Source: an uncultured Verrucomicrobiae bacterium
GTDB taxonomy: Bacteria > Verrucomicrobiota > Verrucomicrobiia > Chthoniobacterales > Terrimicrobiaceae
Reading direction: 5' to 3'
Length of the DNA: 64,000 bases
NCBI GenBank assembly: GCA_963706955.1
Contig: CAVPOC010000012.1
Span: forward strand, 19,081-83,080
Shown here: positions 7,704-27,273 of the stretch, in pieces
How the letters are laid out: each line of letters opens with the position of its first letter
Position numbering within the stretch: the first letter of the stretch is position 1
The notes under the pieces: model-generated
What the model was told of the DNA's origin: nothing
What the model saw: the letters and a program-made list of their open reading frames with translations, nothing else
Databases searched by the model: none
Position numbers and translations under genes: made by a program

Positions 7704-9056
7704 CTAATCGGGTGCACCAGCGCCTTTTTCTTTCAGCACGCCCTCCTTGCCGACCTTTCCGGTGATGAGCCGAGCACCCTTTGCGTAGTTAACGTGTGCC
7801 CAAGCCCACTGCCAAAAGACGAAAACGCGGTTTCGGAAACCGATCAGAAATATCAGGTGAACGAAAACCCAGGCCAGCCAGGCCAGGTGTCCGCTAAACT
7901 TCATTCCAGCCACGCTGGCAACCGCCTTGTAGCGCCCGATCGTGGCCATGCTTCCCTTGTCAAGATAGTTCCATTGCAGTGGCGGTTCACCTCGAAGCTG
8001 GCGCTCGATATTCTTGGCGGCATGGCGTCCAGCCTGCATAGCCGCGGGACTCACTCCTGGCACAGGCTTGCCGCCGTCATAGCTGGTGGCTATCATGTCG
8101 CCGATCGCTTGGATTTCTGGACGGCCCTGGATGGTCAGGTCCGGGTTCACTTTGACACGGCCCTGGCGATCAGTCTCCCCACCGAGCATTGCGGCCAGCG
8201 GTGAAGCTTTATTTCCAGCCGCCCAGATCACCGTGCGTGCCTTGATGACCTGCTGATTAACGTCCACTTCGCCCTCTGCCAGGCGGGTCACTGCGCTGTT
8301 CAAGAGGACTTCGACGTGAAGTTCCTTAAGCTGCCGAAGCGCACTTTCGGAAAGCTCTGGGTCAAAGGGAGGAAGGACCCGCGGAGCGGCCTCTACCAGG
8401 ATGACACGAGCCGATGTTGGATCGATGTGGCGAAAGTCGCTCCGAAGGGTGAAACGTGCGAGTTCGGAAATTGCCCCGGCCATTTCGACTCCCGTCGGAC
8501 CCGCCCCCACGATCACGAAGGTCAAAGCTTGCCTGCGCTCTTCATCATTACTGGCCTTTTCAGCGACCTCGAAGGCCAGGAGCACGCGGCGCCGGATCTC
8601 GAGAGCATCTTTAATGCTTTTGAGACCGGGCGCTTGATCTTCCCACTGGTCATTGCCGAAATAATGGTGACGCGCCCCCGCCGCCACAATCAGGTAGTCG
8701 TATTTAAACGTGAGGTCTTCCGTAATCACCTCGCGGATCTCCGGATTGATTTGTTTGACCTCGTCAAGAACGACTCGGACGTTGGGTTGGTTGCGAAGAA
8801 TGCCGCGGATCGGCTGGGCGATATCGGCAGGCGACAATTCGGCAGTGGCTACCTGATAAAGAAGGGGTTGGAAAAGATGATGATTGCTCCTGTCGACAAG
8901 GATGACTTTGACGGGAGCATTGGCCAGCGCCTTGGCGGCACTGAGCCCCGCAAAGCCTCCTCCAATGATGACAACCACGGGCAGGCTTGCTTTTTCGTTC
9001 GAAGAGGAAACGGTAGGTAGGCTTGCTTTTTCGTTCGAAGAAGAAACAGTAGTCAT
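7704..9056 (-). CDS. ndh: Type II NADH dehydrogenase
   Basis: IIGGGFAGL, HHLFQPLLYQVATA, IVGAGPTGVEMAG, IWAAG, AIGD, YLDKGSMATIGR. Confidence 0.92.
   Translation of the reverse strand: MTTVSSSNEKASLPTVSSSNEKASLPVVVIIGGGFAGLSAAKALANAPVKVILVDRSNHHLFQPLLYQVATAELSPADIAQPIRGILRNQPNVRVVLDEVKQINPEIREVITEDLTFKYDYLIVAAGARHHYFGNDQWEDQAPGLKSIKDALEIRRRVLLAFEVAEKASNDEERRQALTFVIVGAGPTGVEMAGAISELARFTLRSDFRHIDPTSARVILVEAAPRVLPPFDPELSESALRQLKELHVEVLLNSAVTRLAEGEVDVNQQVIKARTVIWAAGNKASPLAAMLGGETDRQGRVKVNPDLTIQGRPEIQAIGDMIATSYDGGKPVPGVSPAAMQAGRHAAKNIERQLRGEPPLQWNYLDKGSMATIGRYKAVASVAGMKFSGHLAWLAWVFVHLIFLIGFRNRVFVFWQWAWAHVNYAKGARLITGKVGKEGVLKEKGAGAPD
8981..9052. repeat. 36-bp tandem duplication in ndh 5' end (TVSSSNEKASLP x2)
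   Basis: aggcttgctttttcgttcgaaga at 8983 and 9019 (period 36). Confidence 0.95.
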
Positions 9057-9126
9057 AGTTCGCGATCTTTTGAGAGTCTATGAGGTGGGGCAGGCGTCCA
9101 AACTAGAAGCGCAGCAAAATCCAAAC

Positions 9127-10374
<1,248 letters not shown>

Positions 10375-19827: not shown

Positions 19828-20631
19828 ATGCCTGCCTCCAACGCTTTTCTTGCACGTGAAACCTCAGCCTCGTTGCGAGCGCCTTCGGTAGACTGGCCGC
19901 TGCTCAAGCGGGTTTCGCGTTCTTTTTATCTGAGCCTTAGGCTTCTGCCCAGACAGGTCCGCGAATCGATAGCGCTCGCTTATCTTCTCGCCAGACTATC
20001 CGATACTTTGGTCGATGGAGCGACCACCGACGCAGAAAGGCAACTCCTGGCGCGACGCCAGGAAATCGAGGCATGGCTTTCCTGTTCGCCGGATCGTCTT
20101 GAGATCGAAAGCGTCTGGTCAACCATTCGCCAGGGTCAGGGGTTCGACCATGAACGCTTCTCGGCCAATTCAGCCCCACTTAGCCCGGAGGAGCTCGATC
20201 GCTATACGTATCTCGTAGCCGGATGCGTCGGCGAATTTTGGACGCTTCTTTGTGAAAAGAAAATACCTGGCTTTGCATCCTTGGAATTCTCCAAATTGCG
20301 CGATTTGGGTATCCGCTTCGGCAAAGGGCTTCAACTCGTCAACATACTGCGCGATCGACACGGCGACGCGCTGATGGGGCGCATCTATGTGCCTCCTGAG
20401 CGGTTCGCGGCCGCCTTGGCGGAGGCTCGCGCGCATCTTGATGCTGCCCGGCAATACGTCGATTCGCTGCGGATTTATCGCTTGCGGGTTGCTTGCACTC
20501 TCCCGCTCTACCTGGGAAACGCCACTCTCGATCTGGTCGAGCGCTATCCGTCAAGGGAGCGCGTGAAGGTCCATCGCCTAAGCGTGTGGCTCCAGTTCCT
20601 GCGAGCTTTGCTGCCCGGAAAGATCAGCTGA
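19828..20631 (+). CDS. Squalene/phytoene synthase family protein
   Basis: VSRSFYLS, YLLARLSDTLVD, YTYLVAGCVGEF, GLQLVNILRD..D..GRIYVP. Confidence 0.88.
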   Translation: MPASNAFLARETSASLRAPSVDWPLLKRVSRSFYLSLRLLPRQVRESIALAYLLARLSDTLVDGATTDAERQLLARRQEIEAWLSCSPDRLEIESVWSTIRQGQGFDHERFSANSAPLSPEELDRYTYLVAGCVGEFWTLLCEKKIPGFASLEFSKLRDLGIRFGKGLQLVNILRDRHGDALMGRIYVPPERFAAALAEARAHLDAARQYVDSLRIYRLRVACTLPLYLGNATLDLVERYPSRERVKVHRLSVWLQFLRALLPGKIS

Positions 20632-20657: not shown

Positions 20658-23600
20658 TCAATCGAAGGATGTTTTCGCGTATTCCCGCAAAATCCCGGCC
20701 AGGACCTTAACGGTGGGTTGGCTCAGCATCTGATCGGGATCGCAGTTCAATCGATTAATGGCCGCGTCGGGGGCACAAGCTCGCCAGGCGGCTTCGTGAT
20801 CACGCGCCATCGTCGTCCCCATTACTACGCAGCAGGGACCGCTCAGCGGTCGCGTGCGAAACTCTCTCAAGGCATTGGCATGCGAGATCTCGACCGAGCG
20901 CATGTTTGAATCGACAAGAACCTCGCGCTTACCAGAGCGCGAAAATGCTCGTGAAAGCGAACGCATCCAGTCATCGGCCTTTCCGTTGAGCAAAGGAGCG
21001 CGCGAGCCCGTCAAGGCAAGATAACGGACGCGAGAACCCGCCTCGCGCATGCGGTGAGCCATCTCAAACGCGAGAACCGCCCCGAAACCGTAACCCAAGA
21101 GATGATACGGGCCATCGGGGTCCTGCATTCGCACCGCTTCAACCAGGGCGGCAGCCTCACTTTCCACGGTTTGATGGCATGCTGCCGGTTCGGTGAGCCC
21201 GCGGGCTGTTGTCCCGATCAGTGTCCAATCTTCGGCGAGCAGTGTGATGAGTTCTCGGTATTTTTCCGGACTCCCTTCGACGTCATGAATAAGGAACAAC
21301 GTGGGAGCGTTGGGAGTAGTGTGCAGGAGCAACAGCGGCTGCCAGGTGATCGAATCGGCCGGATGGACTGTCGGCGAAGTCTTCGTGAGCACGTCAGTCA
21401 ACGATCGATGCAGCCTCGCCGAATCAATTCTCCCGCCGGCGGTGAGTGGAAACTCAGCGACGGCATGCAGGTAGTCTGGCTGCATCGTTTTTGGCTGAGC
21501 ACTAATTGCACTTTGTATTGTCTCCGAGACATGAAGGCTGCGATCTTGCAGAATTAACCAGGCATGGCGAGCGGCCCTGGCACCGCCTGCCATGGTTACG
21601 CAATGTGCGTCTTGAACTCCTGCAATCTCGGTCAGCGATCGTTCGATAAGCTCGTCGTCCGAGGGGATCAGATGAATGACGCCCGATTTGTCGCGCCAGG
21701 CGGGCGCGGCGAACTTCTCTGCATGGTCGCGGAGCTGAATGGTCAATCGTCCTGGGTAGCGCGGCGGAATGAGATGGCCGGCCGAATCGATCAAGCGCGC
21801 TGCAACTCCGGCGCGTGGAGTTCCAAGAGGAACTTCGGTGATGGAGACGGAAAGGCCCGGTCGATCCCCGGCTTCATAGTTAACACTCAAACCGGAAAAT
21901 CCCACCGGGCTGGAAAAGAAGATCGTTCTCGCCCGGCCGTCGTTGATCTCCTGCCACTGTCGATGGATTGCCGGCGCCAAAACTTTCCGCTCGATGCATA
22001 CACAACGCAGCGAATCTGGAAAAGCCGCCCGCTCTCCTCGTAGCCCTGTTGTCCAGCTCCGCCATTGCGCGGAAGTTAGACGCAGATGCGAAGGCCTAGC
22101 ATTTCTTAGCGTCGCGGCGAGTTCTCCCTCTCCGAGCAGAATGATGGTCGACCCTGCGAGCATTGCCGAAAGCACTATTTCTGCGAAAGCGGCAGTCCCA
22201 CCGGTTGTTAGGAGAGGAATTCTATCTCCTGGTTGCAGCTCCCAGAGAGTAATGGTCTCCAGACACGCCTCGAGCAGCAGTTGTGAGCTTAAAGTTTGCA
22301 CGGCAGGCGGCTCATCAAATTCCGTGCCCGTAAGAACCAAAGCGGGCTGGGGGTCGGCCACTGGCGGAACTTCCCCGCTGGATGTCGCGGTGATCACATC
22401 CCACTTTTGATCCAAGATAATGAGCTTGCACCTCAGGTTCGCGAACAAGGGCGCGGTGATTGAATCACAGAGAACAATGTTCACATCGAGAGCGGTGAGC
22501 TTGCTGGCGAGCCACGTCGCACTGGAATTTGGATCTAGAGGCACGCACGTTTTCCCACCGATAAGAATTCCCAGGACGGCGACCGGCAGCCAGGGCGTCG
22601 GTGTCAGACATGTCGCGACACGGCCAGTATGGGCGGGATCTTCAGTGCGAAGATGAGCCGCGAGCAGCTTTGCGCATGAGTCGAGCTCGGCAAGGGAGAG
22701 CGCCGCATCGTTTGGTCCCTCAATCGCGAGTGATAAAGGCTGTCGCGTAATCACCGCGGCGATTTTCTCCTGAAGGGTCAGGCTCGGCTTTTCGCTCAGC
22801 CGCCCGAGCTCCTTAGGTTGGGGGATTTCGGTTTCGGCCTTGGTGAGAATAGAGAGCGACCCCACCTTCCCCGCAGGGTCTTTGATGACCGACTCGGTCA
22901 CCCGCACGATCCGCTCCAAAAGATTTGTCGCTTCCAAAGAAGGAAAGAACTCGGGATCGAATTCAACCCGCAGTTCGAATTGTTGTCCCGACCGCACCTC
23001 GATGGTGAAGGGAAAAATCGAGCGCTGGATCGCCTTGACGTCGAAGCGAATCCAGCGGGGAAGTGCGCGGTGGATACGATCATTCAGCGCCGTCGGCAAC
23101 CACAAAAAGGCGACGGGAAACTCGCTGAGAGGGCGATTCGGCTGCGAGGACTGGAGGGCTTGGGAAAGGCTGATGGCGGCGTGATAGCGACGTTCCTCCT
23201 CCTCGAAGGCAATACTCTTCAACCATTCGGTTGCCGTGCGTTCATCTCGAATCGAGACAAGCGCAGGTAGAAGATTCTCGATCAGACCCCAGCCCAAATT
23301 TCTCGGACCGGCCACGGAACAGCTTGCCAACAAAGTCAGGTTATCGCGGTCGGTCAATCGGCCGATTGCCAGCGCCCAAAACGCGAGGAATGCGTCCCGG
23401 GCCGAAACTCCGAGCTGTCGGCATAGCTTCTGGAGAGACGCAGAGACCTCGCGGTCCATCGTAAGGTGGCTTTCAGCACGCGCACTGGTAGGCAAATCCA
23501 GCGCCCGATGGGGGTAGACCCGAAGCATCCGGGGCTGGGCAGCCTCGGCAAGATGTTTGGACCACCAGTCGGCCGTCGTCTCAGACGCCTCGAATAGTCT

Positions 23601-24107
23601 GGATGGTTCTTCCGCATCCAAAGGTAATGCTCCTTCCAAGGCACCGAGCCATGCACAAAGCAGGCGGAAGACAGCATCTTCATCAAGGAGGACCTTCGGA
23701 TAGGTCATTAACAAGTGGCAGTGGCCTTGCGGCAACTCAATCGCGATGAATCGAACCAGGGGCGGTTTAGCGAGATCAAACGGCTGAGCGGCATCTTCTT
23801 CGAGTAACGCAGACCAGCGCTCAGGCGCCTCTTCGGCAGCCAGCTTCGTCCAATCGAGCAATCGCCATGAGGCCTCGATCCCATCGTGCTCGCGGTAGAG
23901 AAAGTCACCCGCCGGGACCTTGAAAAAGCTTGAGCGAAGGACGCCATAGTTGGCGGTGACCTGCTGCCAAGCCTGGCGGACGCGGGCTGCCGGACAGGCT
24001 TCCCCGAGACTTATCGACAACTGGATGTTTTGAAACGCCGCCGAAGGAGAAGAAGCATGTAGAAAACAAGCAGTGGTTTGAGCAGGGTGGGCGGGTGACT
24101 CGCGCAT
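20658..24107 (-). CDS. NRPS-like protein (condensation - degenerate adenylation - thioesterase), no PCP, predicted inactive
   Basis: C: LRSSF, PFDLAKPPLVR; A: LSLAEL, CVPLDP, FPLTAGGRID; TE: PTLFLIH, GPYHLLGYGFGAVLAFEMA. Confidence 0.8.
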   Translation of the reverse strand: MRESPAHPAQTTACFLHASSPSAAFQNIQLSISLGEACPAARVRQAWQQVTANYGVLRSSFFKVPAGDFLYREHDGIEASWRLLDWTKLAAEEAPERWSALLEEDAAQPFDLAKPPLVRFIAIELPQGHCHLLMTYPKVLLDEDAVFRLLCAWLGALEGALPLDAEEPSRLFEASETTADWWSKHLAEAAQPRMLRVYPHRALDLPTSARAESHLTMDREVSASLQKLCRQLGVSARDAFLAFWALAIGRLTDRDNLTLLASCSVAGPRNLGWGLIENLLPALVSIRDERTATEWLKSIAFEEEERRYHAAISLSQALQSSQPNRPLSEFPVAFLWLPTALNDRIHRALPRWIRFDVKAIQRSIFPFTIEVRSGQQFELRVEFDPEFFPSLEATNLLERIVRVTESVIKDPAGKVGSLSILTKAETEIPQPKELGRLSEKPSLTLQEKIAAVITRQPLSLAIEGPNDAALSLAELDSCAKLLAAHLRTEDPAHTGRVATCLTPTPWLPVAVLGILIGGKTCVPLDPNSSATWLASKLTALDVNIVLCDSITAPLFANLRCKLIILDQKWDVITATSSGEVPPVADPQPALVLTGTEFDEPPAVQTLSSQLLLEACLETITLWELQPGDRIPLLTTGGTAAFAEIVLSAMLAGSTIILLGEGELAATLRNARPSHLRLTSAQWRSWTTGLRGERAAFPDSLRCVCIERKVLAPAIHRQWQEINDGRARTIFFSSPVGFSGLSVNYEAGDRPGLSVSITEVPLGTPRAGVAARLIDSAGHLIPPRYPGRLTIQLRDHAEKFAAPAWRDKSGVIHLIPSDDELIERSLTEIAGVQDAHCVTMAGGARAARHAWLILQDRSLHVSETIQSAISAQPKTMQPDYLHAVAEFPLTAGGRIDSARLHRSLTDVLTKTSPTVHPADSITWQPLLLLHTTPNAPTLFLIHDVEGSPEKYRELITLLAEDWTLIGTTARGLTEPAACHQTVESEAAALVEAVRMQDPDGPYHLLGYGFGAVLAFEMAHRMREAGSRVRYLALTGSRAPLLNGKADDWMRSLSRAFSRSGKREVLVDSNMRSVEISHANALREFRTRPLSGPCCVVMGTTMARDHEAAWRACAPDAAINRLNCDPDQMLSQPTVKVLAGILREYAKTSFD

Positions 24108-24116
24108 GCTGAGGAA

Positions 24117-25820
24117 TCAAAGGCCAGCGTCCGTCACCGCCCCGAGCGAAGCGGTCGTCACGTGTGCCGCATACTTAGCCAAAACCCCTCGGCGATAACG
24201 AGGCTTTGGACGCTTCCAGCTTTTCAGCCTCGTTCTGATCTCACCTTGTGAGACGCGAAGATCGATGGTCCGACTTTCCGCGTCGATCGTGATAATATCG
24301 CCATTCTTGACAATTGCGAGGGGTCCACCGTCGAACGCCTCGGGCGTGATATGCCCCACCACAAAACCGTGAGTGCCACCGGAGAAGCGTCCGTCGGTGA
24401 CCAACGCCACTTCCTTGCCGAGGCCGCGGCCCATGACCGCGCTGGTCGGCGAGAGCATCTCGCGCATCCCGGGTCCTCCGCGTGGTCCCTCGTAGCGAAT
24501 AACGATAACGTCTCCTCTCTTGATCTCTCCTTGAAGGATCGCATGCATAGCCGCCTCTTCGCTGTCATAGACCCGGGCAGTTCCGCTAAATTGCTCGCCT
24601 TCCTTGCCGCTGATTTTGGCAACGGCTCCCTCCGGTGCCAGATTGCCGCGGAGAATGACCAAATGGCTGTCCTTTTTCAGAGGCTTGCTCAGCCGAGCGA
24701 TGATTTGCTGACCCTTTGGATAGGCTTTAAACGGCGCGAGATTTTGCTTAAGCGTCTTGCCGGTGACCGTCAGGCAATCGCCGTGCAACAAGCCGGCATG
24801 GACGAGCTCTTTCATCAAGGGAACGATGCCGCCGATCTCGACCAACTGGCTCATCATAAAGCGACCGCTCGGTTTGAGATCGGCTAAGACCGGGACGCGC
24901 TTTCCGATTCGCGTAAAATCATCCAAGTCGAGACGCACATTTGCCGCATGTGCGATGGCCAGCATATGAAGCACCGCATTTGTGGAACCCCCCAAAGCGA
25001 TGACCACCGTGATCGCGTTTTCGAACGACTCCTTGGAAAAAATGTCCGAAGGCCGAATGCCCCGTTTCAGCATCTGGATGACCGCGGCGCCGGCATCGTG
25101 ACAATCGCGGACTTTGTGCTCGGAGATTGCTGCCTGTGCCGAACTGTTTGGCAAACTAAGGCCCATCGCCTCGAGCGCCGAGGCCATCGTATTGGCGGTG
25201 TACATTCCCCCGCACGATCCAGGACCTGGGATAGCGCAGGATTCGACAGCATGCATTTCCTCCTTGTTGATCTTACCGGCGGCTTCGGCCCCAACCGCTT
25301 CGAAAACGGAAACGATGTCGAGATTCCGGCCGTTCAGACATCCCGGCAGAATTGTGCCACCATAGACAAACACCGCTGGCCGGTTCAGCCGCGCCATGGC
25401 AATGCAACAGCCCGGCATATTCTTGTCGCAGCCGCCGATCGCCACAAAGCCGTCAAAGCCCTGGCAACCAACCACCGTTTCGATTGAGTCGGCAATCACT
25501 TCGCGCGAAACGAGCGAATACTTCATTCCCTCCGTTCCCATCGAAATTCCGTCCGATATGGTAATGGTGTTAAAAATGGTCGCCTTTCCTCCGGCGTCGT
25601 TGACTCCCGCAGCGGCTTCCCGCGCAAGTTGATCGATGTGCATGTTGCACGGAGTGACCATGCTCCAGGTCGAGGCAACACCAATCTGCGGTTTGGAAAA
25701 ATCGTTCTCCCGGAAACCAATCGGATACAACATCGCACGGCTCGGAGCGCGGCTCTCGCCGTCCAGGACAACGGACGAGAATGGACGCAAACCGTTTTTT
25801 GCAGAGACTTTGATTCTCAT
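24117..25820 (-). CDS. ilvD: Dihydroxy-acid dehydratase
   Basis: [56 protein letters not shown]; start taken at ATG 25820. Confidence 0.97.
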
Positions 25821-25875: not shown

Positions 25876-27273
25876 TCAACGGGCTCTCTTCGATTCGATC
25901 GCTTCAATGGCGTCGCGAATGTCGTCTCTTTCCCGAGGCCCAAGTTGGTCGCTTTCGAGCGCAGCACGATAGCTGCGCAGCGCCGACTCGGCCAAGCCCT
26001 GTTTGGCGTAGGCCTGCCCCAGGTAGATCTGATAATCAACGGGGGAGACCCCCGCGTTTCTCGCGTTGGTGACGAGTTTTTCAAGGGATGCGGCTTCGCC
26101 GCTGTAGTCAGTGAGGGTTCTCCGAATTCGCGCCGAGAGAAACAGAGTGTATGAATCATTGGGCGACTCGAGGAGCACCTCCTCAGTAAGCTTCTCCGCT
26201 TGCTCCGTCTCACCTGTTTCGAAGAGTGCCAACGCCTGAACCAACTTCGCATGGCCAAGGTTAGGGTTGCTCTCGAGAGCCTTTCTGCTATGGGCAAGGG
26301 CGTCCTGCCAACGCCGCTGCGCGACGGCAAAGTTGGCCGCGTGGGAGAGCACTGAGGTGTTTTCAGGAGCCAAGCGAAGTGCACGCTCAAGGCAAGCGCG
26401 CGCATCTCCGGTCCGCCGAATCGCTTCATAGTAACCAGCGATCTGGGCTAAATAGAGCGCGGTTCCATTATCCGGTCCAAATTGAAAGGTCTCCTCGAGA
26501 GCCCGTGGCGGAAGCCCGGGACCATGGCGAAAGAGAAAGCCATGGTTGGTCACAGAAGCAAGGTGCCAGTCGGGCGATATCAGCAGGTGATCCAGCAAGG
26601 GTCTGTATTCTCCGATCGGGCCGGACAGAACGACGGCAGGCCATCGCTGCCGGCGAAATGCCTCACGCCATTGGCTGGGATTTAGCGCGAGGCGGGCAGA
26701 ATCCTCTAGCGAAACGCCGCCTCCCTCCTTCGGAAGAAGAAGCAAGAGCAAATGCCTCAATGCGGTGGGATTTGCAAACACCTTCTCTCCGCTCAGCCGC
26801 CGGACCTCGTCAGCCAATTCCGATGGAAGCAGGAGGCGCAGATCGGATGCCGTCTCCCCGCGGTTTCTCCAGCTCATCCACACTGGCGGGACACACGTGG
26901 CCAAGACAAGGATAATGGCAGAACCGAAAAGAATCGCCCGGGAGCGCCGATCATCGAGCAGTCGCACAATCGCGTAAATTACCGCCAGCGAAAACAGCGT
27001 TGCCAGCGTCCAGCCGGCAAAGACCGCCACCCATTGTCCGGTAGCCAGCAGGGAGGCTCCGCCAGCCTCCCAGAGACGGCCCGCGACCAAGTCCGACACT
27101 GACGCATTCCCAAATCCCTCGATCCTCCGGAGTGACGCCAAGCCACGGATTGCCGCTGCCAGGCTCCGCTGCGTAGGAAAGCCACTGAGAAAGGGCAGGG
27201 AATGCAAGAAACCGCAGATAACGGAGGCAGCGACGCCAAATATCGCGTATCTGAAAGACGACGACCTAGACAT
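25876..27273 (-). CDS. Membrane-anchored TPR protein
   Basis: About three N-terminal TM helices, a globular middle domain, several TPR repeats ([22 protein letters not shown]). Confidence 0.8.

Follow-up and report, generated by a model that had tools for sequence, protein, structure and literature searches.

An apparently undescribed family of catalytically degenerate NRPS modules conserved behind ilvD in one clade of Chthoniobacterales

What maintains, directly behind the dihydroxy-acid dehydratase gene ilvD, a gene for a non-ribosomal peptide synthetase (NRPS)-like protein whose catalytic motifs have been replaced? This question is raised by a 64,000-nt stretch of DNA (the window) from an uncultured Verrucomicrobiae bacterium of the Terrimicrobiaceae (assembly GCA_963706955.1, contig CAVPOC010000012.1), in which a minus-strand open reading frame (ORF) at 20658..24107 encodes 1149 amino acids (aa) without an internal stop. 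Searched against Pfam (E ≤ 0.1), this protein, hereafter pseudo-NRPS, gave Condensation, AMP-binding and Thioesterase matches and no PP-binding match, and the NCBIfam NRPS models all scored far under their cut-offs (TIGR01733, for example, 62 bits against 317). A sequence-only reading had described an intact condensation-adenylation-thioesterase (C-A-TE) ORF without a carrier (T) domain and with six catalytic motifs replaced. That description held: the six motifs were found at residues 136, 592, 730, 890, 1005 and 1123, and all sit on catalytic columns of 15 canonical C-A-T-TE homologues. The protein is very probably repurposed and dead for NRPS chemistry, and it belongs to a real and conserved pseudoenzyme family, apparently not described before, that descends from an entire NRPS module. 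The gene and its parts are as follows.

20658..24107, minus strand: pseudo-NRPS gene, 1149 aa, degenerate C, A and TE domains in that order, carrier domain deleted
22848..24107, minus strand: condensation-fold domain, aa 1-420, with conservation across the family peaking in its N-lobe and latch
23715..23735, minus strand: family-conserved hairpin L125-P126...H131
23679..23702, minus strand: replaced HHxxxDG motif, aa 136-143 (YPKVLLDE), the Asp alone retained, in 58 of 62 members
23040..23087, minus strand: latch-region family signature, aa 341-356 (LNDRIH.A.PRW..FD)
21393..22790, minus strand: adenylation-fold domain, aa 440-905, with A3, the A4 Asp, A5, A7, A8 and A10 lost
21348..21392, minus strand: low-confidence linker, aa 906-920, site of the carrier deletion
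20661..21347, minus strand: thioesterase-fold domain, aa 921-1149, with the triad Ser, Asp and His replaced

Taking the roles of NRPS catalytic motifs as set out in passages of PMC10510592, we aligned the protein to the 15 canonical homologues. The C-domain His-His is P137/K138 and the Gly is E143. Within the A domain, A3 is replaced, the A4 Asp is A639, the A5 Glu is G736, the A7 Asp is deleted, the A8 Arg is S816 and the A10 Lys is R893; the TE triad reads G1007, G1034 and P1124 for Ser, Asp and His. Extending this alignment to 62 family rows, which are non-independent and in some cases close, revealed no intact motif in any of them: HHxxxDG (0/62 against 13/15 canonical rows), the A3 loop (0/62 against 15/15), A5 (0/62 against 15/15), the carrier motif (0/62 against 15/15) and the TE elbow (0/62 against 11/15). 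A second C-domain His occurs in one row only, its column holding 13 different residues, and the Gly is replaced in all 62, by Glu in 49. The A4 Asp is found in none; the A7 column is a gap in 57 rows and holds Asp in none; the A8 Arg is kept once and the A10 Lys twice. For the TE triad the counts are Ser 0, Asp 3 and His 0, and one homologue outside this alignment, P0017, has the elbow Ser while the Asp and His are absent. By these motifs the catalytic loss is family-wide, and it is well supported, for every known motif and all three domains, that the protein would perform no NRPS chemistry.

In an AlphaFold2 model built from 31 sequences (mean pLDDT 86.9, pTM 0.72) the three folds, C, A and TE, are arranged as in an NRPS, and confidence is low only over short stretches, among them the linker 906-920 and one TE loop. 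The top Foldseek matches are NRPS termination modules (E 1e-66 to 1e-62), the A core superposes on solved A domains at Z ~40 with a root-mean-square deviation of 2.5, and the best sequence match is McyB (E 1.6e-28). Conservation is highest in the latch (aa 336-362; 0.58) and the C N-lobe (0.50), as compared to 0.34-0.46 elsewhere. P126 and H131 are each present in 61 of 62 family rows and in 0 and 1 of the 15 canonical ones; W352 and D356 occur in 62, P350 in 61, E36 in 59 and R351 in 57 of the family rows, and a helix (341-348) and a strand (356-361) are predicted at the latch signature. New to the family are W98, P126, H131 and P350-R351-W352. Conversely W47, W86, probably G35-E36, and D356 are also found in McyB, and may be inherited. 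Since the latch of C domains adds strands to the N-lobe sheet, as described in part of PMC10510592, the conserved N-lobe and latch residues may form one surface.

Such conserved polar residues raise the alternative that the protein is still an enzyme, with a new C-domain site (H131, E36, D343, R351 and D356) used perhaps for an acyl transfer that employs coenzyme A or the fatty-acid acyl carrier protein (ACP). The near-invariance of H131, D356, R351 and E36 speaks for it, as does the statement in passages of PMC10510592 that several C domains remain active without the second His and that cyclization domains lack this residue; the 0.9-Mb genomes G044 and G058, which encode an orthologue, also hold one PP-binding match each, in a short frame. 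We nevertheless consider a new active site unlikely. The canonical site is unconserved, as the His and Gly columns show, and H131 is predicted to lie at a strand start, seven residues ahead of it. Cyclization domains, according to the same source, carry DxxxxD in place of HHxxxDG, but here Asp stands at the first His position in only 4 of 62 rows. A C-domain site would also leave the selection on A and TE unexplained.

A protein search returned 31 proteins (own included) of 30-100% identity, all without a PP-binding annotation, after which matches drop to canonical NRPSs. Profile searches of 200 genomes of the order, each at least 90% complete, found the gene, always as a single copy, in six related families, where 48 of the 52 genomes have it: 28 of 30 in our own family (f1), 11 of 12 in f16, 4 of 4 in f9, 3 of 3 in f4, 1 of 1 in f10 and 1 of 2 in f2. 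A 29th f1 match, in G003, is a 3858-aa NRPS and was not counted. Among the remaining 148 genomes, five gave matches of 343-392 bits, which, judged by score alone, appear to be canonical NRPSs; the canonical NRPS of our own genome scores 372. The most distant true orthologue scores 400 bits, so close to these values that strongly diverged members may have escaped the search. In 12 genomes of the other families, the region behind ilvD showed no orthologue, although some of these loci end early, and among 300 genomes of the phylum the best match outside the order reached 381 bits.

FastTree placed the family on one side of a branch with support 100, opposite the 15 canonical rows, and recovered f1, f4, f9 and f16 each as one group; in a quick IlvD tree the families that carry the gene share one branch (support 96). 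These trees fit a single origin followed by vertical descent. When the Atlas was searched with homologue P0025, the matches were NRPS clusters and a single cluster of 79 members without carrier domains, which is probably this family. We found no description of it in the literature searched, outside of which lie subscription journals, and two papers on the reduced-genome Xiphinematobacter (PMC7857533, PMC4607532) contain no NRPS-related term in their main text, though their supplements may list an orthologue annotated as an NRPS.

We then asked of the substitution pattern whether such a gene is decaying. Nei-Gojobori ratios of non-synonymous to synonymous substitution (dN/dS) for 15 pairs among six same-genus genomes, many with dS above 1, were 0.08-0.21 over the whole gene, the two closest pairs giving 0.19 and 0.21. 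The C, A-core and TE regions behave alike, far below 1, while the small A subdomain is less constrained (0.12-0.70, with no defined value for three pairs) and is shortened in several orthologues; in working NRPSs this subdomain moves during catalysis. Two neighbouring genes, encoding a tetratricopeptide-repeat (TPR) protein and a squalene/phytoene-synthase-family protein (SQS), show similar values, and ilvD 0.03-0.06. Selection on the gene is, by these ratios, purifying, and the pairing of lost catalytic residues with purifying selection would class the product as a pseudoenzyme. Slow decay of a pseudogene is most improbable. It might draw on the faster evolution of the gene between G044 and G058 (dN/dS 0.18 against 0.06-0.12 for seven control genes), on the 0.28-0.40 found for three f16 pairs and on the loss of the gene in part of our genus; against this, open frames of ~1,080-1,290 aa persist at 18-30% identity, and the gene is kept in both 0.9-Mb genomes. 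Orthologues, purifying selection, a vertical tree and intact predicted folds together argue against random decay, which the sequence-only reading had likewise disfavoured.

The linker between A and TE spans 22 aa in our protein and 89-104 aa in canonical modules. All ten f16 orthologues examined retain 93-102 residues there, while the other 23 have 21-56. This f16 insert occupies the place of the carrier domain in the alignment, its consensus reading Lys where the serine would stand, and is predicted to form a helical bundle of carrier topology. A fold search of 48,161 chains returned carrier domains or carrier-containing proteins for all 50 of the 50 best matches listed, at Z 9.0-6.3, values that are modest for small helical bundles. 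Profile evidence was weak (hhalign probability 3.5%, E 0.012), and the insert gave neither a Pfam PP-binding match nor a PDB sequence match; Foldseek, too, matched nothing at E ≤ 0.001. On position, length and the ranking of predicted folds, f16 appears to keep a serine-less carrier fold; the ancestor would therefore have been a complete C-A-T-TE module, most likely one whose four domains had all lost their chemistry by the time the carrier was deleted.

The sequence-only reading had also considered that the protein might partner an active NRPS encoded elsewhere, and this part was not supported. Work in trans with an active NRPS or polyketide synthase (PKS) is, in our judgement, very unlikely, even though contig C8 of our own genome bears a canonical NRPS cluster, a PKS with a stand-alone C domain is present in several relatives, and X-domains, as passages of PMC10510592 describe them, show that a dead C domain can have a place within an assembly line. 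G044 and G058 (0.9 Mb, one contig and 99% complete each) contradict it as the general function: the pseudo-NRPS gives their only condensation match and their only AMP-binding matches, so that they contain no partner NRPS. Since no other AMP-binding member was found in them, they would also lack any synthetase of that superfamily for acetyl- or acyl-CoA. We compared the 944 predicted ORFs of G044 with our own genome (712 had a match) and passed 80 of the 83 of lowest identity through Pfam; among these 80 there was no second NRPS-related protein, and 11 had no family. Genomes from which the gene is deleted keep NRPSs, and the PKS/stand-alone C unit occurs both with and without the gene, with no orthologue seen in our own genome or in G044.

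That unit was observed at 11 loci (L203-L213) as a large PKS and a stand-alone 450-aa C domain with an intact HHAIADG. In G020 (L210:6619-15786) the PKS is 2593 aa, KS-AT-DH-MT-ER-KR-ACP, and in G013 a fatty-acid desaturase and a MacB-like permease are also present; from its gene content the unit looks like a dedicated lipid pathway. Its C domain was rejected as a replacement for the pseudo-NRPS in deletion genomes: the motif is intact, and G001, G004, G008, G020 and G023 have both. Within the C8 cluster (G000:C8:725000-764000), the canonical NRPS genes are broken into many frames of 355-2409 aa, possibly by assembly indels.

Around the pseudo-NRPS itself the flanking genes are ilvD, the TPR gene, the convergent SQS gene and DUF362, as follows for the first three.

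24117..25814, minus strand: ilvD (dihydroxy-acid dehydratase), 9 nt upstream, the most persistent neighbour
25876..27273, minus strand: TPR protein gene upstream of ilvD, probably the first gene of the ancestral operon
19828..20631, plus strand: SQS gene, convergent

The ilvD match runs ~25814-24117, the longest ORF there beginning at 26429, and its stop lies 9 nt before the pseudo-NRPS ATG. This spacing and the absence of a biosynthetic cluster had been noted in the sequence-only reading, and both stood: no NRPS or PKS genes were seen among the neighbours in the window. A promoter scan gave nothing above chance, and Rfam found two tRNAs only over the window. Because the strongest hydrophobic 19-mer falls inside the A core, the protein is probably cytoplasmic. 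Elsewhere in the window, at 8884-10374, is a gene which we take from its sequence to be nuoD, without adjoining nuo genes and beside an NDH-2-type dehydrogenase gene (7704-9056).

Pairing with ilvD outlasts that with the other neighbours and is conserved over the six families. At 56 of 64 loci ilvD is the next gene upstream, on the same strand and no more than 300 nt away, the eight exceptions being G052 (~330 nt), G492, G503, G471 and the four f9 genomes. Where flanks were adequate, ilvD was kept at 34 of 41 loci, as against 19 of 41 for the upstream TPR gene and 16 of 39 for the convergent SQS gene. Other branched-chain genes also recur beside the pseudo-NRPS: G025 has ilvH-ilvC directly downstream and convergent, and G044 has livM-livG-livF tail-to-tail with it, the orthologues being arranged likewise in G058. 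The reading we favour, which is quite possible though we would stop short of calling it probable, is that the protein assists branched-chain amino-acid synthesis without catalysis, as an accessory or a sensor. In a more specific form, which we offer tentatively, an NRPS module dead in four domains would have been domesticated into primary metabolism, to regulate branched-chain synthesis by sensing metabolites or to protect it as a partner, with IlvD as the enzyme concerned.

Several exceptional loci are of note in themselves. At the G492 locus, restriction-modification genes for a BglII-like endonuclease and an MT-A70 methyltransferase (L138:10317-12785) separate a truncated ilvD from the pseudo-NRPS, and a second ilvD is on another contig. 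In G374, of f9, a canonical multi-module NRPS follows ilvD at 320 nt (L133:6619-16001), probably by coincidence, with the pseudo-NRPS on another contig. In our own genome, ilvC (G000:C1:144600-145623) is split over two frames as compared to the intact 341-aa ilvC of G025, reflecting either an assembly indel or a real frameshift.

A number of observations weigh against a role in the branched-chain pathway. Of the 19 genomes of our own genus, seven carry the gene; in seven others ilvD runs directly into SQS, a clean deletion with no orthologue found elsewhere in the genome, and the contig of an eighth ends too early for this junction to be judged. The deletion may reflect one loss or several. 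Because these seven genomes keep ilvD, IlvD does not need the pseudo-NRPS. We found no convincing co-variation in IlvD: apart from two Lys positions changed in four of eight, no column is both conserved where the gene is carried and specifically altered in deletion genomes. The ilvH gene is present in 48 of 52 genomes, with and without the pseudo-NRPS alike. The pseudo-NRPS is separated from ilvD in all four f9 genomes, G503 and G471, and for a promoter-distal gene with a 9-nt gap, mechanical constraints would keep the link in place. Adjacency to ilvH-ilvC comes from one genome and adjacency to the liv genes from one lineage; both are convergent, and they are absent in G363 and G374. Finally, different residues take the place of Asp235 in the A pocket (G 28, A 17, P 7, L 5, F 4, S 1), so a specific ligand in that pocket is weakly supported. 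Those genomes with a displaced gene that were tested all have ilvD elsewhere. A predicted complex of the C domain (aa 1-425) with IlvD scored 0.00 in two runs and was weighed neither way. Replacement of the acetolactate-synthase small subunit was rejected on the ilvH count.

Some of these points also speak for a repurposed non-catalytic binding protein unrelated to branched-chain amino acids, acting for example in lipid or isoprenoid handling or in another complex and borrowing the ilvD promoter, which we regard as possible and somewhat less likely. Its case rests on the clean losses and the lack of co-varying IlvD sites, on the f9 genomes, in which the link to ilvD is lost and the gene kept beside a divergent peroxiredoxin, and on G044, where the SQS gene survives elsewhere. 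C and TE folds, moreover, often bind acyl chains. Such a role would leave unaccounted for the ilvD pairing that outlasts other neighbours and the recurrence of branched-chain genes in G025, G044 and G058, and deletion genomes retain SQS. In G044 that gene lies in a mqnE-mqnA-hemN-SQS block (L181:333-4418), apart from the pseudo-NRPS.

Returning to the branched-chain proposal, a C-A-T-TE termination module would have settled behind ilvD in the ancestor of one Chthoniobacterales clade, and all of its chemistry would then have been lost while the protein was retained as a non-catalytic, cytoplasmic one. Its C-A core could serve as a rigid platform, with W98, P126, H131 and P350-R351-W352 on the C N-lobe and latch as a binding surface. 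Co-expressed with IlvD, it might bind this or a different enzyme of the pathway, might hold hydroxy- or keto-acid intermediates of the pathway in its emptied A or TE pocket, or might do both; these are the weakest steps. Flux would be tuned or protected by the protein and not dependent on it.

If this is true, the family would plainly exemplify the recruitment of secondary-metabolism machinery to housekeeping, in a role valuable enough for retention in 0.9-Mb genomes without another adenylating enzyme of the superfamily. The gene behaves like a near-core gene of one clade, these two genomes included. Evolutionary intermediates are visible: f16 has a serine-less carrier, and in other members the small subdomain is decaying. 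One genus, in addition, offers natural clean deletions for comparison. Domain-based annotation calls these proteins NRPSs, although known motifs preclude NRPS chemistry.

Among known systems, the closest in domain order and folds are the NRPS termination modules SrfA-C (2vsq), AB3403 (4zxh), EntF (5ja1) and ObiF1 (6n8e), together with McyB C1-A1 (8hlk). Compared to these, the pseudo-NRPS lacks the C, A and TE catalytic motifs, its carrier is deleted or serine-less, and it is single-copy, vertically inherited and set in a housekeeping neighbourhood. Non-catalytic alpha/beta-hydrolase folds with a replaced triad, reused for binding, are found in neuroligin, NDRG and GID1, the elbow Ser being Gly in the first two; these are eukaryotic, of unrelated origin and serve as an analogy only. 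The N91 adaptor domain of TomB (8qsx), compared by entry title, has a carrier-like fold and is among the matches of the f16 vestige (Z 7.1), but unlike that vestige belongs to an active NRPS. The X-domain of glycopeptide NRPSs (Tcp12, 4TX2) is, in the account given in passages of PMC10510592, an inactive C-like domain reused as a docking platform that sits in an active assembly line and recruits P450s. Its hosts have an active NRPS, whereas G044 and G058 have none, and no P450 was seen among the neighbours scanned. Known dead NRPS domains serve active assembly lines; the pseudo-NRPS, by contrast, would be an entire stand-alone module that is dead.

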